The translations under genes and the position numbers were made by a program. The notes under the pieces were generated by a model. It was not told the origin of the DNA. It worked only from the letters and a program-made list of their open reading frames with translations, and ran no database searches. Positions 3,225 to 15,476 of a DNA stretch of 64,000 nt are shown piece after piece (the stretch's first letter is position 1; the number at the start of each line of letters is the position of its first letter). The stretch is from Peptostreptococcales bacterium (GTDB taxonomy: Bacteria > Bacillota > Clostridia > Peptostreptococcales > Acidaminobacteraceae), in assembly GCA_038246775.1 (NCBI GenBank), contig JBBRVO010000001.1:44728-108727 (forward strand), in the 5' to 3' direction.

Positions 3225-5927
3225 ATGCGCGCAATATTTAAAAAGACTGTGACAATCGCAGTGTTAACAATGGTCATAGCGGCACAGACCTTTACCTCAT
3301 CCGCATATACCAAAATCTACGAAACCGCTTCACCGGTAGAAGCCTATGCAGATGGTGTGACACATCAAAACATCAAAATCTACACAAATGAAGGCTGGAT
3401 CAATATGAACGTCCTTCGTGTAGACCTTACTAAAAACGTTGGAATGACAGTTCTTACGGATACGGTGTTATCGACAAGGGATACTATTACAAATTTAGTT
3501 AAGAAAAATAACGCTGACAATACCATTGTAGCTGCGATAAACAGCGACTTTTTTGATACGGCAAACTCTACGACGATGGGAAATCTCGTCAAAGATGGCA
3601 AAATTTTAACAACGAGTGTCGGTTATGATGATTTTGCCTCATTTAATATGGGGACAAACGGTCTGCCATATGTGGGTTACATTAACTCACCAAACAATAA
3701 AATCACCAATGGCACTTACACAAAGACTTTATCCTATATCAACAAACCTTACCTTCAATATAGTCGAACGATTATGTATGACAACGACTATGCTTTAAAA
3801 TCATATGGTAAAACCATCGGTTCGGATGTGCTTGAAATGTTGGTACTTGATGGTGTCATCGTTGAGATCAGACGTAAAGGGGAGCCATTCACAATTCCAG
3901 ACAACGGTTTTGTCATCGCCTCAGTGGGCAACGACATCGGTGAAATGTCTACGAATTTCAAAATGGGCGATCCAATTACAGTTAATTACGATGTCAATTT
4001 TAAGTATATGGATCTAAGCATTGGTGGTGGTGCACAACTTCTTAAAGAGGGTGCTGTCATCACGAATTTTTCTCAAAATATTAAAGGCAATCAACCAAGA
4101 ACGGGACTAGGTATCACAAAAGACCGTAAAGAACTGATTCTTGTGACGATTGATGGGCGTACGTCTTCTTATAGAGGGGTCACTCAAACAGAACTTGCGA
4201 CATTGCTCAAAGGGCTTGGTGCGCATGAGGCAATCAACCTTGACGGTGGTGGATCCACGCAAATGGTTTCAAAATCGCCTTGGACAAATTCAGTAAAGAC
4301 CGTTAATTATCCTTCTGATCAAGCGGAACGCAAAATGTACACAGCGCTTGCGATAGAAAAGCTTCTTGAGGAATCCCCAGTTCTTAGAACGACTAAAATA
4401 AACGTGGGCAGTACACGGATGTTACTTGGTTCCGAAGTTGCTGTAAGCCTTTTAGGTAGTGATACCAATTACAATCCAGTGTCCATCCCGGCCAAAGAAG
4501 TCGTTTGGAGCGTCACTGGCGTAACGGGCACTTTTGCGAATGGCAAATTTGTTCCAAGCAGTCTTGGAAAAGGCACCATCACAGCGTCTTATGGTAATTT
4601 CGTGGCAAATCAGGAAATCGTCGTCAAAAACAATGGCGTCAAACTCATCGTGTCACCATCCAGCTTAAAAGTTGATGAGAATCAAGAAAAAACAATCACT
4701 TTTTCAATTTTGACCGAAGAAGGTGAAACGATTCCGATTTCATCAAAAGTTGTAAAAGCCGTGGTACCACCAACGCTCGGCAAATTTGATTACGATAAGA
4801 GCGCCTTTGTTGCGGGTGGTCAAGTCGGTCAAGGCTACATCACTTGTGAATTTGATGGCCTTAAAGCGTATATTCCTGTTGGTATAGGCGTTGATAAGCA
4901 ATTGTTTTACGATTTTGAGAAACCGACGGCGACGTTCAGTAGCTATCCAATTGCGGTGACTGGTTCCTATCAAGAAACGGCAACAAATGCCAAATCAGGC
5001 TTATCCGCTCAGCTCACTTACGATTTTTCAAAGACGACTGAAACACGAGCTGCCTATATGACGTTTAAATCACCCGCTACATTGCCTAAAGACACTCAAA
5101 GTATAGGCATGTGGGTATTTAATGAGGCAGGCAACGACCACTGGCTCAGAGCCAAAGTCATCGATGCCAAAGGCACTGCATCGAACATCACGTTTACAAC
5201 ACATATTGATTGGACCGGCTGGAAGTATATTACGGCTGATCTTCCAACAGGTTCTGTTGCGCCTTTTGTCCTAGAGAGAATTTATCTCGCTGAGACGGAT
5301 GCCACGCGACTTGACTCAGGCTACATCTTAATTGATAACGTGGAAGCAATCACGAGCCAGGCACTTTCAGTAGCCCTACCTGGTGAAGTCAATCGTCTAA
5401 AAAAAGTGGTTGACTATAAATTGCCCGCAGAACTCGTTGGTAAAACGAGCAAATTGATGAATATCCTTTTTTATACGGAAAAAACGACAGCGGTTGATGC
5501 CTTGATGAAAGCCAACAACATGGAATGGACGACGCATTCTGGCATATATAGTGCATCGGAACGCACCGACGCAACCGTTTTTAAAATGGTGAACAAAAAA
5601 GGTTCAATTCGCGCCAATGATTATACACAGTGGACAAAATTCTTGAACTTTGTCAAAACGACAACTAGCAAAAAACCGGTGGTGTTGATGATGAGCGATG
5701 TCTATATCTTCAACGACCGTCTTGAAAGCGACTTGTTTTTAACGCAGCTTCAGACTTTGACTGACAAAGGGATTGATGTAGCTGTTATTTTCCCAACTTC
5801 CAATGCAACATTTAGTGTTGCAAAGGCCAATGGTGCCACCATCGTCAAAGTGCCTAGAACCGCGACGAGCCTTTCTTACCTCAGCCTGGGCATATCAAAC
5901 AATAAAATTTATTTTGAAGCAAAATAA
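3225..5927 (+). CDS. Secreted phosphodiester glycosidase (NAGPA/DUF2233) family protein with Ig-like and carbohydrate-binding-like modules
   Basis: Signal-peptide-like N-terminus, AAINSDFF, PRTGLGI, VTIDGR and INLDGGGSTQM motifs, followed by beta-rich modules. GGAGTG RBS. Confidence 0.8.
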   Translation: MRAIFKKTVTIAVLTMVIAAQTFTSSAYTKIYETASPVEAYADGVTHQNIKIYTNEGWINMNVLRVDLTKNVGMTVLTDTVLSTRDTITNLVKKNNADNTIVAAINSDFFDTANSTTMGNLVKDGKILTTSVGYDDFASFNMGTNGLPYVGYINSPNNKITNGTYTKTLSYINKPYLQYSRTIMYDNDYALKSYGKTIGSDVLEMLVLDGVIVEIRRKGEPFTIPDNGFVIASVGNDIGEMSTNFKMGDPITVNYDVNFKYMDLSIGGGAQLLKEGAVITNFSQNIKGNQPRTGLGITKDRKELILVTIDGRTSSYRGVTQTELATLLKGLGAHEAINLDGGGSTQMVSKSPWTNSVKTVNYPSDQAERKMYTALAIEKLLEESPVLRTTKINVGSTRMLLGSEVAVSLLGSDTNYNPVSIPAKEVVWSVTGVTGTFANGKFVPSSLGKGTITASYGNFVANQEIVVKNNGVKLIVSPSSLKVDENQEKTITFSILTEEGETIPISSKVVKAVVPPTLGKFDYDKSAFVAGGQVGQGYITCEFDGLKAYIPVGIGVDKQLFYDFEKPTATFSSYPIAVTGSYQETATNAKSGLSAQLTYDFSKTTETRAAYMTFKSPATLPKDTQSIGMWVFNEAGNDHWLRAKVIDAKGTASNITFTTHIDWTGWKYITADLPTGSVAPFVLERIYLAETDATRLDSGYILIDNVEAITSQALSVALPGEVNRLKKVVDYKLPAELVGKTSKLMNILFYTEKTTAVDALMKANNMEWTTHSGIYSASERTDATVFKMVNKKGSIRANDYTQWTKFLNFVKTTTSKKPVVLMMSDVYIFNDRLESDLFLTQLQTLTDKGIDVAVIFPTSNATFSVAKANGATIVKVPRTATSLSYLSLGISNNKIYFEAK

Positions 5928-5973: not shown

Positions 5974-6028
5974 GGGTGTCATGACAAATCTAAATTTTAT
6001 TTTGATTTGTCATGACACCTTCTTTTTT
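5974..6028 (+). terminator. Intrinsic terminator
   Basis: Long stem ggtgtcatgacaaatc / gatttgtcatgacacc followed by a T-rich run. Confidence 0.85.
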
Positions 6029-6176
6029 TATGATTAATACCCATTTGAACCTCTAATATAAGAATCTGATTAGAAAGGTGTAAGAAAATATTAGGTTAAT
6101 ACTAAACAAACCTATGTAGTTACAAACCTCAAATTTGCTTATAGTGTATGTAGAAGTAAAAATATGAGGTGATGAT

Positions 6177-7166
6177 ATGCTTAGTTTTAAGCCTAGGCAA
6201 TTAAACGAAGAAGGCATCGTAGAAAAACTGAAAGAAGTCTATGCGCTATGCGATGCTGAGGATTTTAAAACAAAAAAATTTGTCGGCTTGATCAATGATT
6301 ATATACCTTATCAATCCGGACTTAAAATCAGATTGGAATGGATGGGCAAACAAGGGTATATTGAACAGCTAGAGAAGCTAAAAAAAGAAAATAGCCCTTC
6401 ACTTAAAATAGAAAAAATGGCGTTACAGTTTGCTAAAGAGTACGGTTTTGTCGCAGAAGACAGCTACAAAACATTTGCGATGATGGCACGAGCGATGTCG
6501 TTAAAAACGGCACTCCCACAAAATGCCACATTGAAAATTGTTTCTTCAGTTCAAAGTGCTCAAGGTAATTTCTCGAAAAAGCATATCCAAACAGAAGAAA
6601 CATCAAGACTGAACATCATACAAGTAGGAGAGGTTGGCGCTGGTACAAGTCTGCCGAAAGTCAAACGTAGATTTGTTAGAAACAAGACCAGTCTGTGGCT
6701 TTATATTTTTTATCTGCTCATGATACCAGTTGGCTATTACACGCTTTATGAGAATTTTGGCTTGGTAAACCAGGTTTTTAAAAGTGTGACAGATACGATT
6801 AGAGTGCCGATTTACTCGGACCCTTGGTTTATCGGTGTAATGATCGCAATGAGCGTTGCGACACTATTGCCAGTGTTAGGAAAATGGGCATTTAAATTAA
6901 ATGTCATTAGTCTATATCCATTGCTTATGTTGCTGGCTCAAGTGGTGCTTGTTTCTATTGAAGCGAAATTTCCACTGTTTGTGATGGGCTTTCAACTGGC
7001 AATAGGACTCGGCATGATGGTGTCCTTTGCAATACTTGCTTTCTATGCTATGAGGTTGCCAAAAGGTGCAAAAGAATACCTCGCCTATCAAGCCATTATA
7101 CCGTATTATCTATCGGCAATCATTTGGTTTTCAGGACAATATATTGTATTTGCTAGGGTAATCTAA
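6177..7166 (+). CDS. Uncharacterised membrane protein (soluble helical N-terminal domain, linker, about 4-5 C-terminal TM helices); first gene of the kinase-vWA-PP2C operon
   Basis: 329-aa ORF with a GAGGTG RBS and hydrophobic segments from about residue 170 to the end. No family recognised. Confidence 0.75.
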   Translation: MLSFKPRQLNEEGIVEKLKEVYALCDAEDFKTKKFVGLINDYIPYQSGLKIRLEWMGKQGYIEQLEKLKKENSPSLKIEKMALQFAKEYGFVAEDSYKTFAMMARAMSLKTALPQNATLKIVSSVQSAQGNFSKKHIQTEETSRLNIIQVGEVGAGTSLPKVKRRFVRNKTSLWLYIFYLLMIPVGYYTLYENFGLVNQVFKSVTDTIRVPIYSDPWFIGVMIAMSVATLLPVLGKWAFKLNVISLYPLLMLLAQVVLVSIEAKFPLFVMGFQLAIGLGMMVSFAILAFYAMRLPKGAKEYLAYQAIIPYYLSAIIWFSGQYIVFARVI

Positions 7167-7195
7167 ACAGCCACAACATGAGAATGGAGGTTAAA

Positions 7196-8536
7196 ATGTC
7201 AGATCAATTAAACAATGGCGCATTTGTTTCTTCTGGACAAAGGCGATTTCGCGTACTAAAGGAAATCGGCGGCGGCGGGCAAGGTAACGTGTACCTTGTA
7301 TCTGAAGACGCCGAGCAATATGCACTTAAATGGTATAATAGAACATCATCAACCGCTGAGCAATACGCGGCCATAGAGATTTTAGTTGAGAAAGGTGCAC
7401 CAAGCGACAAATTTATTTGGCCACTGGCTATAGTAGAAGGAGAATCAAAGGACAATTTCGGCTATATTATGCCGCTTATTGATACAAAACGTTTTACAAA
7501 ATTGGCGCACTATTTTGGCGGTGAGTTAAAAGTCAAGCGCTTTGAACCGCTTATCGATGCATGCATACGCATGGCACATGGTTTCAACGAACTACATCTC
7601 AGCGGCCTTTGTTATAGAGATATCTCTTTTGGGAACTTGTTTGTGGATTTTGAATCGGGTGACATACTCATTTGCGACAACGACAACGTCACCTTTGACA
7701 ATTTGACCAAAACGGAAGATATTTGGGGTACGCACGGATTCATGGCGCCAGAAGTCGTCAAAGGTGAAAAACCACCAAGCTCTCAAACCGATCTATTCTC
7801 ACTGGCAGTCGTTCTGTTTAGAATGCTACACTTGCAACATCCGCTGCAAGGTAAAAGAGAGTATGAAATTGAGATTGCAGATTTGGAAGCTTTGACAGAT
7901 CTATATGGACATAATCCAGTATTTATCTATGACCCAATAGACGCAACCAATCGTCCGGTTAAAGGCAAAAAAGATATGGCAGATGCCTATTGGCCGTATT
8001 ATCCAGAATTTTTAAAAAATAAGTTTATTGATGCATTCACACACGGGTTACAAGATCCTAACCAACGCATCAGAGAGAGTATTTGGATAAAAACATTTGC
8101 AGATCTGAGGGCTTCGCTCATGTACTGCTATCATTGCGGCGAGCAACTCTTCTATGACAAAACTAAAATGGGGCGTTTAGATCCTTGTCCAAAGTGTGGC
8201 AAAGCCATTGACACATTGCCACCGAGGCTGAAAATTGCCGAGAGAATCCTCATGCTCAGTCACGATGTGACACTCTATGTGAACCAGATTGATGAAGCGT
8301 GTCCAATGGACTATGAAACCCCTTATGCGAAGGTTGAAATTCATCCGAGACACCCTGAAATCTGGGGGCTGAAAAACCTCTCAGAAGACAGTTGGCGATA
8401 TGAAACAAAAGATGGAGAATTGAAAGAAGTATTCAAAGGCGGCGTGATCCCCATCAAAGACAACCAAGAAGTGTTTTTGGGCAATGCCATAGGGACCATG
8501 AGAATTGGAACAAAAATCACCCAAAAGAAAAAATAG
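7196..8536 (+). CDS. Atypical Hanks-type Ser/Thr protein kinase with Zn-ribbon and C-terminal beta-rich (FHA-like) domain; TerY-P triad kinase
   Basis: Gly loop IGGGGQGNVY, Lys in YALKWY, catalytic loop YRDISFGN, DND in place of DFG, APE, DLFSL, and CYHC...CPKC. Start at ATG 7196 after GGAGG; the ORF track starts at 7178. Confidence 0.88.
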   Translation: MSDQLNNGAFVSSGQRRFRVLKEIGGGGQGNVYLVSEDAEQYALKWYNRTSSTAEQYAAIEILVEKGAPSDKFIWPLAIVEGESKDNFGYIMPLIDTKRFTKLAHYFGGELKVKRFEPLIDACIRMAHGFNELHLSGLCYRDISFGNLFVDFESGDILICDNDNVTFDNLTKTEDIWGTHGFMAPEVVKGEKPPSSQTDLFSLAVVLFRMLHLQHPLQGKREYEIEIADLEALTDLYGHNPVFIYDPIDATNRPVKGKKDMADAYWPYYPEFLKNKFIDAFTHGLQDPNQRIRESIWIKTFADLRASLMYCYHCGEQLFYDKTKMGRLDPCPKCGKAIDTLPPRLKIAERILMLSHDVTLYVNQIDEACPMDYETPYAKVEIHPRHPEIWGLKNLSEDSWRYETKDGELKEVFKGGVIPIKDNQEVFLGNAIGTMRIGTKITQKKK

Positions 8537-8545
8537 GAGGTCAAC

Positions 8546-9223
8546 ATGACTATAGAAAGAGACGGAAAAATGGGCAACAGAGATTTACATTTGTTTTTTT
8601 TAATCGACGCTTCGGATTCTATGAGCTACGGTGGTAAAGTTGAAACGCTTAACAATGCCATTCGCGAGGCGATTCCGCATATTAGAGAAATTGCTCGGGA
8701 AGCGGAAGGTTCAATCAAAGTGCATGCCCTTTCATTTTCCACAGGCGCAAGATGGATTGTAAATAATGTGGATGTAAGGGATTTTACCTGGGACAATATT
8801 ACAACCAAAGGCGTTACGGACATGGGACGTGGCTTTGAACTATTAGCTGAAAAACTCAGTTCCGATTTTCAAGGTGAAAGAGGCTATCAACCTGTCATGA
8901 TCTTGTTGTCAGATGGACTACCAACCGACGACTATGAGTCAGGTCTCAAAAAACTCAAAGCGACGAAATGGGGCAGCAAGGCAATTCGCATTTCCATTGC
9001 CATCGGTTCCGAAACGGATATGGATGTGCTACAAGCCTTCATAGGAGACAGTTTTAGAGGGGAACTCAAACCACTTAAAGCCAAGAATGCGTCGGAACTT
9101 AAAAACTATATCAGATGGGCTTCAACGGCGGCTTCAAACGCCTCAATCAATCCAATGAGAGGGATGTTGCCGCCACCACCGACTGTGGATGCAGAGGTTG
9201 ATGTTGAGGCTATTGACTGGTAA
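8546..9223 (+). CDS. TerY-like von Willebrand factor A domain protein
   Basis: MIDAS motif LIDASDSM (DxSxS), T in GVTDMG, ILLSDGLPTD, and a Pro-rich tail. GGAGG RBS. Sits between a kinase and a PP2C. Confidence 0.88.
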   Translation: MTIERDGKMGNRDLHLFFLIDASDSMSYGGKVETLNNAIREAIPHIREIAREAEGSIKVHALSFSTGARWIVNNVDVRDFTWDNITTKGVTDMGRGFELLAEKLSSDFQGERGYQPVMILLSDGLPTDDYESGLKKLKATKWGSKAIRISIAIGSETDMDVLQAFIGDSFRGELKPLKAKNASELKNYIRWASTAASNASINPMRGMLPPPPTVDAEVDVEAIDW

Positions 9224-10776
9224 TGCAAACGCTATGGCCTATATCAGGCGCTTCTATCATAGGCAGCGCACATATTAGAAAAGGGTCGCCCAATCAAGAT
9301 GCATACGGCTTTAAGAACCTAAGTGGCGGCATCCAGGTTCTTGCTTTAAGCGATGGTCATGGTGGTGAAAGGCACTTATACAGCGATCTTGGATCTAAGG
9401 CGGCCATAGAGGCGGCCATAGAAAGCGTCCAAGACTATGCATTAAATACGGTTGCCAATCAATTGCCTTATAATGAGGCAAAGTTGCAATTCGATTTTGA
9501 GGGTCATGTATCCAAGGACATTCAAGTGCGCTGGCTTCAAAAGATTCAATCATCACCTGCTTTTGAGGACGCCATGCAGTTTGGCTGCACGCTACTCCTG
9601 TGTGTGAAATTCGATAAAGTCATTGTCTTCTTGCAACTCGGAGATGGGAAAATCGCCGTCGTGTATACGAATGGCGTCATCTACTATCCAATTCCCCGTG
9701 ATATGCGTTATGAAAACAATGAAACGGCATCCTTGGCTCAAACGCTGGCTTGGGCCGAGATGAAGGTCGTCACACTATCAAATGAAGGGGATATCCATGC
9801 AATCTTTCTCGCTTCTGATGGGGTTGAAAATGCCTATCCAGAGGACTATTACGACGATGCGTACTTCTACATGAAATTGGCTTTGCCACACGAAACAAAC
9901 AACGTGACGCTGCCTAAGTTAGATGTTCAGTCCGAGGGTATTTTACATGAAATGCTCAACAAGGCATCGCAGTATTCAAAAGACGATACCACCGTTGTTA
10001 TGTGGCACAATCCAGAGAATACCATGCAAGAAACCACCGTTCCCGAATCTTTACAGATTTGGATGGGTGCTTACCCCAATTATTGGTTGCCTATTGCCTG
10101 CCATTTGGATAAGGCACTTAACAAACGTATTGACTACGCCCTATTACTCATAGAGGCCATTCAAAGAGATGAGGGGGTTGTCCCGCAGTATCTGTCTATA
10201 AAGCAAATTTATCTTGATGCGGATAGATCTCGCCTTGAAATCATAGCACCTGGAGACCGTGAACCCGTAGTTATTGAAACGCTTTATGCGTTGATCATGC
10301 AAATGCTCATGTTACCAGATACGCAAGAATTTTTAGAATTTGGCAAAACTTTAAAGTGCGATTGTTTAAGTTTAGAACCTATACCAGACACTTTGAGACA
10401 TATGAAAAGAAAGCTCATCGCTATGAAGCAAACGTTGAGATATGACTATTTGAGTCAGCAGTTTGTCTGCGATGGCAAACCGTCAGCAATAAGCATCACC
10501 GCATCAAACGGACATTTTGCGCTATTTTTTGACAGTGACATCTACTTACATCAATTGATGCCGCTTGTTGGGGATTATGACGGTCTCATCGGTCGTGTCA
10601 TCCAGCACGCAAAATATAAGAACATATGGGGCATGGTGAATCTCTCCGGACATGTTTGGCAGGTAGTCGGTGGCAAAAGACTGCGCATAGATCCAGGTAT
10701 GACGTTGACACTCATTGATGGAATTACCGTTTTCATCCATGGAATACCTGTAAAAATTAGAATAATAAACCAATGA
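9223..10776 (+). CDS. PP2C-family (YegK-like) protein phosphatase fused to a degenerate kinase-like C-terminal region
   Basis: GSAH...NQDAY, ALSDGHGG, GCTLL, QLGDG, FLASDGV and SKDDTTVV motifs in residues 1-263. The start overlaps the vWA stop (TAATG). Residues about 270-517 resemble the C-terminal half of the upstream kinase. Confidence 0.87.
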   Translation: MQTLWPISGASIIGSAHIRKGSPNQDAYGFKNLSGGIQVLALSDGHGGERHLYSDLGSKAAIEAAIESVQDYALNTVANQLPYNEAKLQFDFEGHVSKDIQVRWLQKIQSSPAFEDAMQFGCTLLLCVKFDKVIVFLQLGDGKIAVVYTNGVIYYPIPRDMRYENNETASLAQTLAWAEMKVVTLSNEGDIHAIFLASDGVENAYPEDYYDDAYFYMKLALPHETNNVTLPKLDVQSEGILHEMLNKASQYSKDDTTVVMWHNPENTMQETTVPESLQIWMGAYPNYWLPIACHLDKALNKRIDYALLLIEAIQRDEGVVPQYLSIKQIYLDADRSRLEIIAPGDREPVVIETLYALIMQMLMLPDTQEFLEFGKTLKCDCLSLEPIPDTLRHMKRKLIAMKQTLRYDYLSQQFVCDGKPSAISITASNGHFALFFDSDIYLHQLMPLVGDYDGLIGRVIQHAKYKNIWGMVNLSGHVWQVVGGKRLRIDPGMTLTLIDGITVFIHGIPVKIRIINQ

Positions 10777-10777
10777 A

Positions 10778-10820
10778 ATGCCATTTTATGGAATAAATCT
10801 ATGAAATGGCATGTTTTTTT
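10778..10820 (+). terminator. Intrinsic terminator closing the kinase-vWA-PP2C operon
   Basis: 12-bp stem atgccattttat / atgaaatggcat (one G-U pair) followed by gttttttt. Confidence 0.75.
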
Positions 10821-10958
10821 GTGTTTTTTTCAAAAAAAGGTGATTATTATTATTAGATAAAGGATATTTTGGTATATATATAAAAAGATTGACGACAATA
10901 TGATCATTCACATAATAGAAAATGGATATTACAACCAATTTGAAAGGAGTGACAAAGG

Positions 10959-11402
10959 GTGAGAGAACAAATTGTGTCGCAAATATTGGGAGAATTTTTA
11001 ATCTTAGTACCAGTGCTGAACAAAAAAATTCTTAGAGAGAACGATCTGTACAAATTGGATGATTTATACCCGTCACATGTGCAGATTTTACTGCTTCTCG
11101 CGAAAAACAAGCAACTGACAATGTCTGAAATCAGCAAAGAAATTCACGTGATTAATTCAAATTTGACGCCACTTGTAGATAAACTAATAAAATTAGGCTA
11201 TCTGAAACGGCAACCTTCAAAAAAAGACAGAAGGGTTGTTCACATATCATTGACAGCAGGTGGTAAAAAACAAGTTGAGAAGCACAAGCAATACGCGGTG
11301 TCTTATTTAACGGAACAATTCGAAAAGCTCGATGACGAACAATTAAAAGCGTTGGAAGCGCATATAAACGCCATCAACGGCATCCTAGTGGATTTTATCT
11401 AA
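10959..11402 (+). CDS. MarR-family transcriptional regulator
   Basis: Winged helix pattern LTMSEISKEIHVINSNLTPLVDKLIKLGYLKRQPSKKDRRVVHISLT. GTG start after an AAAGGAG RBS. Confidence 0.92.
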   Translation: MREQIVSQILGEFLILVPVLNKKILRENDLYKLDDLYPSHVQILLLLAKNKQLTMSEISKEIHVINSNLTPLVDKLIKLGYLKRQPSKKDRRVVHISLTAGGKKQVEKHKQYAVSYLTEQFEKLDDEQLKALEAHINAINGILVDFI

Positions 11403-11435
11403 TCAACCATTAAGGAACGTGCATAATATCCTTAA

Positions 11436-11464
11436 TTGAAAAAAATGGCTATTTTTGATACTAT
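11436..11464 (+). promoter_or_regulatory. Sigma-A-type promoter for the aminopeptidase gene
   Basis: TTGAAA-17 bp-TACTAT. Confidence 0.6.
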
Positions 11465-11507
11465 GAATTAGGATAGATTTATCCTAATTTTTTTTGAGGT
11501 GACTATA

Positions 11508-12737
11508 ATGAACGACACAAAATTCATCAAATATGCAGAATTACTCGTGAAGACAGGCATTAATCTTAAAAAGAATCAAATTCTGGTCGTTAGGGCACCG
11601 ATCGAATGTGCGGAATTTGCAAGAGCAATTACTGAAATCGCTTTCGATGCTGGTGCAAAAGATGTCGTTATCCTTTGGAACGATGATGGTTATTCCAAAA
11701 TTAGATACTTGAAAGGCCCTGAGGCTTTATTCGATACAATTCCATCTTGGCAAAAGGCGTTTTATCTTTCTTATGTGAGACAAGATGCCGCATTTTTATC
11801 GATTTCTGCGTCAGATCCAGAAAATTTCAAAGAGGTTGATCCACTGCGTATTCAGCGCTATTCAAGAGCCTTCAATGCTGAGGTTTCCGAATATAGACAG
11901 CGTCTCATGAACAATGAAAATGTTTGGTGCGTCGCTTCTGTGCCTACGCCAGCATGGGCGGCAAAAGTATTTCCAAACGACACAGTTGACGCGGCGATGG
12001 ATAAGTTATGGGAGGCCATTTACGCGTCCGTGCGCATTGATGAAACGGATGCAGTTGCCGCTTGGGAAACCCATAAAGCAGCACTAAAAAAGCAGATGAA
12101 CCATTTAAATGAACTGAACTTTAAATCGCTGCACTACACAAACAGTCTAGGCACTGACCTTGTCATCGAACTTCCAGAAGGCCATATTTGGCTTGGAGGT
12201 TCTGACTTTACGCCAGATGGTCATGAATTTATTGCGAACATGCCGACAGAAGAAGTATTCACGGCCCCTAAACGCGATGGTGTAAATGGAAGAGTGGTGA
12301 GCGCAATGCCACTTAATTTCAGTGGCAGTTTAATCGACAAATTTGAACTTACTTTTGAAAATGGCAAAGTGGTCGATTACAAAGCGGAAGTCGGTTATGA
12401 GCAACTTAGAAGGCTACTGGAAACGGATGAAGGTTCTATGTACTTAGGTGAAGTAGCGCTTGTTCCATATGATTCTCCAATTTCAAATATGGGCATCTTA
12501 TTCTATAACACATTATTTGATGAAAATGCATCGTGTCATCTGGCTCTTGGCAAAGCCTATCCGGTTTGTCTTAAAGGCGGCGAGCATATGGACAGTGACA
12601 CGTTGATTAAAAACGGCATTAACGATTCGATGACACACGAAGATTTCATGATTGGCACAAAAGACTTAAGCATTGTGGGAACGACGTATTCTGGTGAAAC
12701 AATCCAGGTCTTTAAGAATGGTAATTTCATAGTCTAA
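11508..12737 (+). CDS. pepS: Thermophilic metalloprotease M29 family aminopeptidase (AmpS/PepS type)
   Basis: ANMPTEEVFTAP, LGEVALV, TLFDENASCHLALG and HEDFMIG motifs. Start at ATG 11508 after GAGGTG; the ORF track starts at GTG 11499. Confidence 0.92.
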   Translation: MNDTKFIKYAELLVKTGINLKKNQILVVRAPIECAEFARAITEIAFDAGAKDVVILWNDDGYSKIRYLKGPEALFDTIPSWQKAFYLSYVRQDAAFLSISASDPENFKEVDPLRIQRYSRAFNAEVSEYRQRLMNNENVWCVASVPTPAWAAKVFPNDTVDAAMDKLWEAIYASVRIDETDAVAAWETHKAALKKQMNHLNELNFKSLHYTNSLGTDLVIELPEGHIWLGGSDFTPDGHEFIANMPTEEVFTAPKRDGVNGRVVSAMPLNFSGSLIDKFELTFENGKVVDYKAEVGYEQLRRLLETDEGSMYLGEVALVPYDSPISNMGILFYNTLFDENASCHLALGKAYPVCLKGGEHMDSDTLIKNGINDSMTHEDFMIGTKDLSIVGTTYSGETIQVFKNGNFIV

Positions 12738-12783
12738 TTAAGGTGTAAAAGTAACACGTATCAATTTCAAATAGTTAGATGAG

Positions 12784-12815
12784 TCGCTTGTGCGGAAAAG
12801 CACAGGCGATTTTTT
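12784..12815 (+). terminator. Intrinsic terminator
   Basis: Stem tcgcttgtgc / gcacaggcga followed by a T run. Confidence 0.8.
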
Positions 12816-12937
12816 ATCATCGCTTCATGATTTTTTTACAATAGGTGTGATTTTCAGGTGAGAATTGGTATTAAATAAATACGAAACTATTTAAAGGACA
12901 TAGCTACAAGTTATATTGTGGCTTTGATGGTGAACTT

Positions 12938-14620
12938 ATGAAAAAAACAATCGTCATCGCGGGAGCAGCTGGAGAAGGCATCAATACCGTCCAGCAATTT
13001 ATTGAAAGGATACTCAAAAAAAATGGGTATGACATATTTTCCTATAAAAATTATATGTCGCGTGTGCGTGGGGGCTACAACTATTCCACGATTGTCATTA
13101 GCGATCAATCGGTTTTTGCACCAGTAGATGAAGCCGATATTTTTATCGCTCTGAATCGTGAAGCGTACGACCATTCAAAAGATCTAATGCATGAAGGCAC
13201 TTTGCGCATCGCTATGAAAGATTTGGCACAAGATTCTATTGTAGAAGGGCAACTTTTATTTGACAATGAAAAATTAACCGCTGAAAGTAAAGCAAAAAAT
13301 GCATTTTCCATGGCTTCAGTTGGGGCCATTTTGAAAATCTTCGGATGTGAAGAAAGTGCGCTAGAAGAGACGGCCAACAAAAAATGGACGGATGCGGTGA
13401 ACTTAGAAAATTTAAAGGCAGCTAAATATGGTTATATGGCGACGCACGTTCAGTTTGAGACGCCGAAACATTTAGCTGAGGGTGAACGCATATTAATGGG
13501 CGGTAATCAAGCTGTTGCTCTAGGCGCCCTAAGTGCGGGGATTAGCTTTTATTGTGCCTACCCGATGGCGCCTTCAACAGGTATTATGAATTACCTCGCC
13601 ACTTATGAAAAAGAAATGCACATCGTCGTCGAACAGGCTGAAGATGAAATTGCCGCCGTCATGGCGGCGGTCGGCGCATCGTCTAATGGCGTTCGTGCCA
13701 TGACCGGAACATCAGGTGGTGGCTTTGCATTGATGGTGGAAACCATAGGTTTTGCAGCAGTGAGCGAAACCCCAATCGTCATTGCCAATGTTCAAAGACC
13801 AGGACCGGCAACAGGACTCCCTACTAGAACGGAACAGGCGGATTTGGCGTTTGTCGTCTCGGCGTCGCAAGGGGAGTTTTCAAGAATTATCTTAGCGCCA
13901 CTTACCGTTGAAGATGCTTTCTATGACACGCACAGAGCATTTAATCTCGCAGATAAATATCAGGTGCCAGTGGTGATCCTCACCGATCAACTGTTGGCGG
14001 ACACGATGCAAAGCATCCCAAAATTTGATACGTCAGCCCTTAAAATAGAAAGGTATCTGCAGCCAGAGAGTGTCTCAGACTATAAGCGTTATGACTTTGA
14101 CACGATATCTGGGGGGCGCAAATATCCCGGAATCGATTCAGAAACTTTGATTATGACTGATTCACACGTACATGATGCCTATGGTCATGTTACAGAAGAT
14201 GCCCTGATGACGGTTGCACTCAAACAGAAATTTCTAAAACGCACTCAGGCTATAAAGCTTGAACTTAAAAAGCCAATGTTCTATGGAGATAAAGCCTACA
14301 AAACGCTTTTTATTGCTTGGGGTTCAACCTATGGCGCCCTTAGAGAAGCAGTTGATGCTATGATGCTAAAGGGTGAAAAAGTTGCACTGTTGGCATTTTC
14401 AGATGTTTTTCCGCTTCATAGCGAGGTGTTAGACGGTTATGTAAAATCGGATACAGAAGTTATAAACGTGGAAGGTAACGCCATGAATCAATTTGGTATG
14501 ATTCTGCGCATGGAAACCGGGGTCATGTTCAAACACGCCATTAACAAATACGACGGACGCCCATTTACTGGAAAATTTATTCAAGACGCATTCGAGGTGA
14601 TCAAACATGGTAAATATTAA
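12938..14620 (+). CDS. korA: 2-oxoacid:ferredoxin oxidoreductase, alpha subunit (gamma-alpha fusion)
   Basis: GAAGEGI, RVRGG, YPMAPST, AEDEIAA, TSGGGFALM and QRPGPATGLPTRTEQ motifs. Substrate specificity cannot be determined from sequence. Confidence 0.9.
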   Translation: MKKTIVIAGAAGEGINTVQQFIERILKKNGYDIFSYKNYMSRVRGGYNYSTIVISDQSVFAPVDEADIFIALNREAYDHSKDLMHEGTLRIAMKDLAQDSIVEGQLLFDNEKLTAESKAKNAFSMASVGAILKIFGCEESALEETANKKWTDAVNLENLKAAKYGYMATHVQFETPKHLAEGERILMGGNQAVALGALSAGISFYCAYPMAPSTGIMNYLATYEKEMHIVVEQAEDEIAAVMAAVGASSNGVRAMTGTSGGGFALMVETIGFAAVSETPIVIANVQRPGPATGLPTRTEQADLAFVVSASQGEFSRIILAPLTVEDAFYDTHRAFNLADKYQVPVVILTDQLLADTMQSIPKFDTSALKIERYLQPESVSDYKRYDFDTISGGRKYPGIDSETLIMTDSHVHDAYGHVTEDALMTVALKQKFLKRTQAIKLELKKPMFYGDKAYKTLFIAWGSTYGALREAVDAMMLKGEKVALLAFSDVFPLHSEVLDGYVKSDTEVINVEGNAMNQFGMILRMETGVMFKHAINKYDGRPFTGKFIQDAFEVIKHGKY

Positions 14621-15476
14621 GCTTTCAGACAATCCATTTGTGACAAATAGCCCCACAAGTTGGTGTCCAGGTTGTGGAAACTTCAGCATACTCGACAGTA
14701 TCAATCAAGTTCTGTACGATATGGGCTTCAAACCGCAGGAGATCCTCATGGTATCGGGCATCGGTCAGGCAGCTAAATTGCCACATTATATCCACGCACA
14801 TGGACTCAATACGCTTCATGGACGGGCAGTACCCGCAGCGTTAGGTGCTCAAGTGGCCAACGATGCCCTTAAGATTCTCATCACTTCAGGTGATGGCGAT
14901 ACGTATGGCGAGGGTGGCAACCACTTTATGCACAACATCAGACGCAACTTGGACGTTGTCCACATCGTCCATGATAATCAAGTCTATGGGTTAACAAAAG
15001 GGCAGGGGTCACCGACGACCGCTCTGGGTCAAAAAACGCGTCTACAAGTAGACGGCATGCGGCATGAGGCGCTCAATCCAGTGGCACTGGCCATATCTTT
15101 GGGGTGTAGCTTTGTGGCACGGAGCTTCTCAGGAGATCCGAAACATCTTCAAACAATGATAACGGCTGCGATGCAACACAAGGGCTATGCGCTGATTGAT
15201 GTCATGCAGCCTTGCGTGTCATTCAATCACGTGAATACGTTTAAGTGGTATAAGGATCGTGCTTTTTATATACCGGAGACACATGATAAGTCGGACAAAG
15301 TAAAAGCGTTTGAGTTGGCACAGACATTTGGAGAGGATGGCATCCCAATGGGCATTCTTTATCTCCATGAGAAACCAACATTTTTAGAACAATGTCGCCA
15401 CATTACTAAGCCACTTATCCAGTACGACAGAAAACCAACGGACATCGATTGGCTCATTGACCGATTGGTAGAATAA
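14607..15476 (+). CDS. korB: 2-oxoacid:ferredoxin oxidoreductase, beta subunit (TPP-binding)
   Basis: WCPGCG, SGIGQ, LHGRA, GDGD, DNQVYGLTKGQ and QPCVSFN. Overlaps the alpha subunit stop. Confidence 0.9.
   Translation: MVNIKLSDNPFVTNSPTSWCPGCGNFSILDSINQVLYDMGFKPQEILMVSGIGQAAKLPHYIHAHGLNTLHGRAVPAALGAQVANDALKILITSGDGDTYGEGGNHFMHNIRRNLDVVHIVHDNQVYGLTKGQGSPTTALGQKTRLQVDGMRHEALNPVALAISLGCSFVARSFSGDPKHLQTMITAAMQHKGYALIDVMQPCVSFNHVNTFKWYKDRAFYIPETHDKSDKVKAFELAQTFGEDGIPMGILYLHEKPTFLEQCRHITKPLIQYDRKPTDIDWLIDRLVE

Follow-up and report, generated by a model that had tools for sequence, protein, structure and literature searches.

Three proteins make up the TerY-P triad: a TerY-like vWA protein, a phosphatase of the PP2C family and a Ser/Thr kinase whose C-terminus carries a zinc ribbon (PMC11090510 and PMC4978471, after Anantharaman et al. 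2012). The triad can occur alone, and its link to ter or restriction genes was described as an association (PMC11090510). In the anti-phage TerY-P system, the kinase ends in an OB fold (PMC11090510). Actinobacterial sets combine a PP2C and a vWA protein with a kinase that carries a zinc ribbon as well as a domain rich in beta-strands (Kaur et al. 2020, PMC7159879). The kinase and the phosphatase of the E. coli yeg set were shown to be active (bioRxiv 10.1101/819920, 10.1101/303594), the kinase YegI being a two-pass membrane protein (bioRxiv 10.1101/819920). D. radiodurans DRA0334 unites KI-FHA and PP2C parts, and its operon also encodes vWA, kinase and FHA proteins (bioRxiv 10.64898/2026.01.23.701218). 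Here, a four-gene unit was analyzed that lies at positions 6177-10776 (+ strand) of a window of 64,000 nt, i.e., the whole stretch of DNA studied, from a bacterium of the genus Fusibacter (Bacillota, Clostridia, Fusibacteraceae). Judged from sequence comparison, the locus is a lineage-specific, vertically inherited TerY-P-type variant. We estimated a probability of about 60% that the operon works as a membrane-tethered push-pull phosphorylation switch with a housekeeping or stress role.

In the open reading frame (ORF) list of the window, the unit consisted of four + strand ORFs of 329, 452, 225 and 517 aa, all in one direction. The intergenic gaps were 11 nt (ORFs 1 and 2) and 9 nt (ORFs 2 and 3), and ORFs 3 and 4 shared a 1-nt overlap (TAATG). 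A ribosome-binding site, GAGGTGA, was located 6 nt 5' of the ATG at 6177. The genes and the edges of the unit were as follows:

5974..6028, + strand: intrinsic terminator of the upstream NAGPA-domain gene, the left edge of the unit; a perfect long hairpin GGGTGTCATGACAAAT...ATTTGTCATGACACC followed by a T-run
6007..6034, + strand: promoter-like site TTGTCA-16-TATGAT ahead of the operon, a consensus match only (10/12)
6177..7166, + strand: accessory membrane protein, 329 aa, with an N4-like helical domain, a disordered linker and ~5 transmembrane (TM) helices
7178..8536, + strand: Ser/Thr kinase, 452 aa, Pfam Pkinase 1.1e-22
8546..9223, + strand: TerY-like vWA protein, 225 aa, Pfam VWA 8.1e-08
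9223..10776, + strand: PP2C fusion protein, 517 aa, Pfam PP2C_2 5.1e-30
10778..10820, + strand: intrinsic terminator, the right edge of the operon; a 15-bp stem (hairpin 10778-10812) followed by a T-run, GTTTTTTTGT, found by the terminator scan

The hairpin at 5974-6028 was read by eye in the sequence, its loop exceeding the limit of the terminator scanner. Hence, the co-orientation, the short gaps or overlap and the terminators on both sides that an earlier note on this DNA had described were confirmed, and the four genes form one intact predicted operon.

All three defining parts of TerY-P were found in the unit, namely a vWA protein with a metal ion-dependent adhesion site (MIDAS), a PP2C and a kinase with a C-terminal zinc ribbon. 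A tblastn search with the vWA protein returned 2282 plasmid records, mostly enterobacterial ter plasmids (28% identity, 88-91% coverage, E values of 7e-12 to 9e-16), and the genes matched on the Klebsiella and Enterobacter ter plasmids were TerY. On a Klebsiella IncHI1B plasmid, where the locus reads vWA-TerD-vWA-TerY_C-PP2C-kinase, the vWA match was the TerY gene. A hidden Markov model (HMM) made from the single vWA sequence matched Klebsiella TerY at 4.8e-20. Further, the Klebsiella kinase matched the profile of the window kinase at 6e-35, up to Klebsiella residue 355, just before its zinc ribbon. These vWA and kinase homology tests support the assignment, made in the earlier note, of a TerY-P-type kinase/vWA/PP2C unit with intact active sites. 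Among the four operon proteins and three neighbors, Pfam detected no Ter protein (TerD, TerC, TerB, TerY_C), McrBC, helicase or nuclease.

In the window kinase, the Hanks-type domain is followed by a helical extension and a zinc ribbon of the CxxC...CxxC type, and the C-terminus is formed by a beta-rich domain, here called cbd. As in Fusibacter, the Klebsiella ter plasmid encodes a TerY-like vWA protein, a PP2C_2 protein and a kinase whose zinc ribbon is followed by a C-terminal region. However, the Fusibacter order is kinase-vWA-PP2C with one vWA gene and no ter genes nearby, whereas the Klebsiella ter locus has three vWA genes. The vWA protein ends in ...IDW in Fusibacter and in ...PPPPPEVNVVL in Klebsiella TerY. 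The Klebsiella phosphatase has a 308-aa N-terminal extension and none at the C-terminus, in contrast to the C-terminal extension of the Fusibacter protein, and the C-terminus of the Klebsiella kinase was not detected by the Fusibacter cbd profile at E <=10. In the Klebsiella pneumoniae record NZ_CP050156.1 (L104:10101-11834), the PP2C protein is 577 aa long and its ~308-aa N-terminal extension is of low complexity. The kinase of the Klebsiella ter-plasmid TerY-P set is annotated only as 'lipopolysaccharide kinase InaA family protein'.

The E. coli set yegL-pphC(yegK)-yegJ-yegI, likened here by description only, is likewise a chromosomal and membrane-associated vWA/PP2C/kinase set. The YegI kinase itself spans the membrane twice, whereas the Fusibacter kinase is soluble and a separate protein would serve as the membrane anchor. 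The anti-phage TerY-P system (Gao et al. 2020) likewise brings kinase, phosphatase and vWA adaptor activities together in one operon; unlike for the Fusibacter locus, neither a fourth membrane protein nor a phosphatase fusion has been described for it. The Actinobacterial sets share the core, with the PP2C and a stand-alone vWA gene adjacent as in Fusibacter. These sets belong to another phylum and are linked to a GAP1-N2 GTPase, which is absent from the Fusibacter operon, and the available part of the report makes no mention of an N4 accessory domain or a phosphatase-cbd fusion. DRA0334 is alike in its push-pull logic, a PP2C being fused there too to a module targeting the opposed kinase pathway. 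The targeting module is FHA in DRA0334, but a non-FHA copy of the C-terminus of the partner kinase in Fusibacter. Plant KAPP is a further PP2C with a kinase-interaction domain. The local four-gene architecture has not been previously described.

The following parts were recognized in the phosphatase:

9223..10017, + strand (aa 1-265): PP2C (PPM) catalytic domain, PP2C_2 5.1e-30, metal-binding Asp intact
10075..10437, + strand (aa 285-405): middle region, possibly a degenerate kinase C-lobe, with HRD changed to PQY, Asn to Gln and DxD lost
10438..10767, + strand: zinc-ribbon remnant (LRYDYLSQQFVCDGK, aa 405-419) and cbd (aa 423-515), matching the C-terminal module of the kinase

The PP2C motifs were D26, D44-G-H-G, D199-G and D254-D255, with D26, D44, G45, D199, D254 and D255 invariant in orthologues. 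The AlphaFold2 (AF2) model of the whole phosphatase had a predicted local distance difference test score (pLDDT) of 91.3 and a predicted template modelling score (pTM) of 0.90. A Foldseek search with this model returned bacterial and plant PP2Cs (E 1e-10, TM-score normalized to target up to 0.77).

When whole proteins were compared by hhalign, phosphatase residues 285-517 were collinear with kinase residues 103-448 (probability 99.2%, E 3.8e-19). Splitting the comparison placed the signal in the C-terminal module, the C-terminal parts aligning at E 7e-20 with a probability of 99.2%, and BLASTP aligned kinase residues 360-443 with PP2C residues 434-514 at E 1e-4. The zinc-ribbon CxxC...CxxC was retained in the phosphatase orthologues L018 and L023; the window protein has LRYDY...FVCDGK there. 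In the AF2 model, the cbd is a domain of ~nine beta-strands after the zinc ribbon. It is thus established, at the level of sequence homology, that the phosphatase carries a putative docking module copied from its partner kinase. The unusual phosphatase fusion proposed in the earlier note was therefore borne out, the C-terminal module being the zinc-ribbon remnant and cbd of the kinase.

In a tree of cbd domains, the PP2C copies formed one clade (support 1.0) nested among the kinase cbds of Fusibacteraceae, which points to a single fusion event in the clade ancestor. Hence, the phosphatase appears to have gained the C-terminal module of the kinase once, in the ancestor of the Fusibacter clade. 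The fusion was found in 0/73 non-Fusibacter loci of the subfamily described below, and it was rare in general, with 47 clusters at 90% identity among 5.8 billion proteins.

The nature of the middle region was less clear-cut. Against the local kinase profile, it matched in hhalign at E 1e-4 with a probability of 55-58%, collinear with kinase residues 104-170, and against a broad kinase profile in the same register at E 0.004 with a probability of 8%; both matches are weak. The region is the fastest-evolving part of the operon (47-51% amino-acid identity to congeners), its alignment holds no invariant residues, and a profile search of the PDB gave no kinase match, with nothing meaningful in the PDB or Pfam. 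Such data would suit a docking module that merely follows an unrelated helical linker, in which case 'PP2C-pseudokinase fusion' would be an over-reading, and we regard this as possible though doubtful. Yet the register, weak as the match is, was constant and placed phosphatase residues 299-345 on helix E, the catalytic loop and beta 7-8 of the kinase. The region is also collinear with the strongly homologous module downstream, and the order of secondary structure in the AF2 model (a long helix, four short strands and three helices) fits a C-lobe. Additionally, it matches distant kinases less well than the local one, which is what a local duplication would lead one to expect. The middle region is therefore rather likely to be a dead kinase C-lobe; the kinase-like piece is at most C-lobe-sized, with no N-lobe.

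The conservation of the operon was examined by searching for the phosphatase in 60 related genomes, after which 13 loci with their flanks were compared; the congeneric records included F. bizertensis and uncultured Fusibacter sp. The same four genes, in the same order and directly upstream of a MarR - M29 block, were present in nine other Fusibacter genomes and in three further genera of the family, and all 10 Fusibacter genomes (that of the window included) were syntenic for the operon. In two further genera, a short form of three genes, encoding a kinase, a vWA protein and a 276-aa PP2C, was found elsewhere in the genome. More distant genera had neither the operon nor shared synteny around the M29 gene, and a search for an empty site in family genera lacking the operon gave no clean insertion or deletion site, since synteny of the M29 gene was not conserved there. 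Scans of the window ORFs and Pfam revealed no compositional break at the locus and no integrase or mobile-element gene.

Amino-acid identity to the window protein was 78-97% for the vWA protein, 51-92% for the kinase, 28-84% for the membrane protein, 27-61% for the phosphatase and 64-91% for M29. The membrane-protein gene L011:10643-11671 has a masked/N stretch (XXXX), and its 68% identity is an underestimate. The ratios of nonsynonymous to synonymous substitution rates (dN/dS) between the window and its congeners were unreliable because of saturated dS (>1.3), and the values below were taken from the pair L012/L013 alone (dS ~0.4):

vWA protein: dN/dS 0.004
kinase: dN/dS 0.018
membrane protein: dN/dS 0.09
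phosphatase: dN/dS 0.21
flanking genes: dN/dS 0.02-0.04

These ratios indicate that all four genes are functional and vertically inherited. The vWA protein was the most constrained protein of the neighborhood and nearly frozen (97% identity in a comparison in which the M29 peptidase shows 90%), and the phosphatase was the least constrained. The locus is a core, fixed chromosomal one, under purifying selection in Fusibacter and its relatives.

The upstream neighbor (3225-5927) encodes a 900-aa surface protein with a NAGPA (phosphodiester glycosidase) domain and a signal-peptide-like N-terminus. The downstream block, within 10959-15476, holds MarR, the M29 aminopeptidase, a 560-aa gene and a 289-aa gene, and it accompanies the operon in nearly all genomes having the operon. 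The 560-aa and 289-aa genes follow M29 in all operon loci but one, whose sequence stretch ends earlier. MarR has its own promoter-like site at 10889-10916. By Pfam, the neighbors on both sides (the NAGPA-domain gene upstream, MarR and the M29 aminopeptidase downstream) are ordinary genes, which supports the view of the earlier note that the unit is self-contained amid housekeeping genes.

Relatives of the kinase were further sought with the kinase alignment in a scan of one genome per species, and at least 587 loci were found to encode one; genes for vWA and PP2C proteins were usually close by. The best 80 of these matched near full length, zinc ribbon and C-terminal domain included; the matches listed came from Anaerolineae, Pyrinomonadaceae, Chromatiaceae, cyanobacteria, Lachnospiraceae, Leptospiraceae and others. 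A set of 73 non-Fusibacter loci was then examined by ORF calling and with custom HMMs, within the sequence stretch available for each. A complete triad was present in 38 of the 73, with the order vWA-PP2C...kinase in 30/38 and kinase...vWA-PP2C in 7/38. The kinase-first order, which the earlier note had treated as distinctive, is therefore not special.

The subfamily can be recognized by three predicted marks. Its kinases end in a zinc ribbon and cbd, the tail of its vWA proteins is acidic and closes with ...[DE][VIL]W, and its accessory proteins begin with an N4 domain. The window proteins carry the first two, the cbd profile matching the kinases of related loci and the window vWA protein ending in EAIDW. 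N4 is an N-terminal helical domain of ~110 aa that heads 1-4 accessory proteins per locus in 61/73 non-Fusibacter loci, and no Pfam family was reported over this region. The C-terminal parts of the N4 proteins are hypervariable and include right-handed beta-helix, leucine-rich repeat (LRR), FGE-sulfatase, Lcl_C, Big_2+SH3 and Sel1/TPR forms; TM helices were predicted in 24/88 of these proteins. Pyrinomonadaceae loci have a ~255-aa N4 form upstream of the vWA gene, and a TM helix is predicted close to the C-terminus of this form. Examples of N4 accessory proteins are, among others:

L034:5434-6882
L054:5647-6831
L097:8348-9532
L036:5253-6893
L058:8266-9312
L087:10356-12131
L098:9990-11780

The cbd was also found outside the standard kinases. 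In a Microcystis cassette (L096:12270-13901), a 543-aa protein consists of FHA (35-107), a PrsW protease (205-420) and cbd (447-542, E 1.3e-16). Anaerolineae/Chloroflexota/Thermoflexus cassettes encode, right after the standard kinase, a second protein (844-898 aa) in which the kinase profile matches twice and a cbd is present:

L055:8417-11011: double-kinase protein with cbd
L061:8357-10891: double-kinase protein with cbd
L077:8211-10907: double-kinase protein with cbd

The presence of cbd on the FHA-PrsW protease and on the double-kinase proteins indicates a portable module distinct from FHA, and cbd behaves as a putative portable recruitment domain. A guess from the sequence pattern that cbd itself might be an FHA domain was dropped, as no FHA match was obtained and cbd co-occurs with a genuine FHA domain in the Microcystis protein.

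The membrane protein was divided into three parts:

6207..6527, + strand (aa 11-117): N-terminal all-helical cytoplasmic domain, probably a divergent copy of the unnamed 'N4' domain
6531..6584, + strand (aa 119-136): linear motif LKIVxxVQxAQGNFSKKH in the disordered linker, in a region of pLDDT <50
6684..7160, + strand (aa 170-328): membrane domain of ~5 TM helices, from AF2 (170-193, 216-239, 243-261, 266-291, 307-328) and hydropathy

AF2 modeled a seven-helix N-domain (residues 10-106, pLDDT ~80), a disordered linker (113-167) and ~5 TM helices. A diversified profile of the N-domain aligned with the N4 profile in hhalign from end to end over 100-107 columns (probability 86.6%, E 4.5e-6); the reversed control gave 0.7%, and an earlier, shallower profile had given 67%. 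The N4 HMM also matched one divergent orthologue of the membrane protein, L023, at 2.4e-4. Judging by the end-to-end alignment, the membrane protein is probably a local member of the N4 accessory family in which a polytopic membrane domain replaces a soluble binding domain. Hence, the protein that the earlier note had called an extra leading membrane protein is probably not extra, as it resembles the accessory family of the related loci.

In the linker motif, G130 was invariant among 42 sequences, and Q129, N131, F132, S133, K134, K135 and H136 were nearly so; S133 is replaced by Thr in a divergent member of the family. The motif is a candidate phospho-acceptor or docking site. The membrane domain has conserved basic loops (KWAFKxN and MRLPKGAKEY), which are predicted to face the cytoplasm by the positive-inside rule, and conserved polar residues inside the TM helices (Q273, S283, Q321). 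No Pfam, NCBIfam or PADLOC match was obtained for the membrane protein, and no structural neighbor was found, the best E value being 0.86. Its family comprises only 46 clusters at 90% identity (21 at 50%), and all members occur in Fusibacter-like bacteria. In the model, the protein has no sizeable external domain, and the role of an anchor or effector seems more plausible for it than that of an extracellular sensor.

In the kinase, the motifs GGGGQG, K51, YRD148, N153, D167/D169 and APE were all present, and the catalytic residues were invariant in 14 orthologues; judged from these intact residues, it is an active-looking Hanks-type Ser/Thr kinase. Its C-terminal parts were located as follows:

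8126-8197, + strand (aa 317-340): zinc ribbon, C317-x2-C320 ... C337-x2-C340, the four Cys invariant in 14 orthologues
8234-8512, + strand (aa 353-445): cbd, the beta-rich C-terminal domain

The kinase may start at Met7 (nt 7196, MSDQL) and not at 7178; several orthologues start there, and the preceding residues are unconserved. The genome of the window encodes seven Hanks-type kinase domains, and the operon kinase is not its sole Ser/Thr kinase.

The MIDAS of the vWA protein was complete (D21-x-S23-x-S25, T91, D123) and kept across orthologues. With the kinase and PP2C residues given above, the motifs that the earlier note had read as intact were confirmed and proved invariant in 12-42 orthologues. 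The C-terminus of the vWA protein consists of a Ser-rich tail, WASTAASNAS, and a conserved acidic end with a final Trp (...EAIDW). The tail spans 9113-9220 of the window (...WASTAASNAS...PPPPTVDAEVDVEAIDW). The subfamily form of this tail, ...W(V/A)ST...SASSPASQ...NVPIP...[DE][DE](V/I/L)W-COOH, is kept across phyla, ending in DDVW in most relatives and in EIDW or LDW in the Fusibacter clade. The tail is a candidate docking or phospho-acceptor peptide.

Based on these features, we proposed that the N4-like domain and the linker of the membrane protein would keep the complex tethered to the membrane on its cytoplasmic side. Sharing a putative docking module, the kinase and the phosphatase would be recruited to the same partner site and compete for it. 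The targets would be Ser/Thr residues in flexible segments, either in the Ser-rich vWA tail, in the nearly invariant GNFSKKH motif of the membrane-protein linker or in both, and phosphorylation would alter the MIDAS ligand of the vWA protein and hence the state of the membrane protein. Membrane association recurs in the TerY-P class, as with the two-pass kinase YegI. A housekeeping stress or envelope-related role was favored over anti-phage immunity on the ground that the locus is core and syntenic.

Several points weigh against such a switch. None of the subfamily members has a known interaction, substrate or phenotype, and the steps of the mechanism are all inferred. Profile searches gave no Pfam or PDB sequence match for cbd, and Foldseek of the whole phosphatase model gave PP2Cs only. 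The relation of the membrane protein to N4 comes from the profile-profile comparison by hhalign alone, because HMMER with the membrane-protein profile recovered, among 1.84 billion proteins, the 21 members of its own family and no N4 protein. Finally, two observations recall conflict systems: loci of the wider family encode several accessory proteins each, with hypervariable binding domains, and the phosphatase and the membrane protein evolve 5-10x faster than their neighbors.

An anti-phage function by abortive infection, as the earlier note had suggested, was considered unlikely. Here, the membrane protein would be a sensor or a membrane-damaging effector, the kinase would be toxic or activating, and the phosphatase fusion, perhaps as a pseudokinase decoy, would silence the system. 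Protection against T7-like phages has been reported for a TerY-P-like triad (Gao et al. 2020, cited in PMC7699616 and PMC11090510), and TerY-P triads also sit within CoCoNuT/McrBC restriction loci (PMC11090510) and within an H. pylori island (PMC4978471). Across phyla, the wider subfamily has a patchy distribution and, with its 1-4 LRR, beta-helix, FGE-sulfatase, Sel1 or Big_2 accessory proteins per locus, resembles a receptor repertoire. In addition, dN/dS was well above that of the neighbors for the phosphatase (0.21) and the membrane protein (0.09), a difference that would suit a conflict but is readable either way. The locus itself, however, has an identical architecture and chromosomal position in all 10 Fusibacter genomes and in 3 other genera, it lacks integrases, other defense genes or a compositional break, and all four genes are under purifying selection. 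PADLOC found only generic kinase models (PD-T4-6, mad6 and others) for the operon kinase, and no match at E <=0.1 for the vWA protein and the PP2C, the TerY model PDLC02224 included. As a control, PDLC02224 weakly matched an Acidobacteriota relative and missed Klebsiella TerY. As the model misses both the window vWA protein and Klebsiella TerY, the validated anti-phage TerY-P system is likely a different, narrow subtype. In 50,697 phage records, no full-length homologues were present, only generic kinase-domain matches. The defense proposal was thus left unsupported by the fixed synteny, the selection, the lack of a mobile context and these searches. The earlier note had also held that a conserved core locus with an identical, already described architecture, together with a non-toxic kinase and no phage or stress phenotype, would speak against its proposal; the conserved core with identical architecture was found, but that architecture was not one already described.

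Two other explanations start from the same proteins. In a metal- or tellurite-type stress module, the MIDAS would sense a divalent metal, and the kinase and phosphatase would relay this to a transporter-like membrane protein. The homology of the vWA protein to TerY proteins of ter operons, its intact and extremely conserved MIDAS, and a polytopic partner with the conserved polar TM residues noted above agree with such a module, and a metal-sensing, phosphorylation-dependent switch has been proposed (Anantharaman et al. 2012, as cited in PMC11090510). It was nevertheless judged very unlikely: TerD, TerC, TerB and TerY_C were absent from the seven proteins scanned, the membrane protein was unlike any transporter in sequence or fold searches, and soluble LRR, beta-helix and FGE proteins fill the same position in the subfamily, which suits recognition of proteins or ligands better than ion transport. 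More speculatively, and in our view distinctly improbable, the Fusibacter operon could be the domesticated single-receptor form of a large, undescribed modular surveillance class. This class would be built of a kinase/PP2C/vWA core, N4 and cbd docking, and interchangeable sensors or effectors (LRR, beta-helix, FGE-sulfatase, Sel1, PrsW protease, membrane domains), and the docking half captured by the phosphatase would act as a competitive decoy that silences the membrane effector until a trigger arrives. If this were true, it would be a new regulatory principle in bacterial Ser/Thr signaling or immunity. If the operon were defensive, it would be a rare example of defense that has become fixed in the core genome.

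Despite being very common, TerY-P triads are barely understood in their mechanism, with respect to the vWA ligand, the kinase substrate and the output. The subfamily outlined here is a large set of cassettes unified by two unnamed domains, N4 and cbd, and a Trp-ending vWA tail. Within it, the Fusibacter clade offers a simple and stable version of TerY-P, with one accessory protein, one vWA protein and a phosphatase sharing the docking module of the kinase. It suggests concrete interactions, namely of cbd with the vWA tail or the N4-like domain, with the Ser-rich tails as substrates. If the shared docking holds true, the Fusibacter operon would clearly illustrate, in bacteria, how a duplicated targeting domain can match a kinase and its phosphatase to one target.

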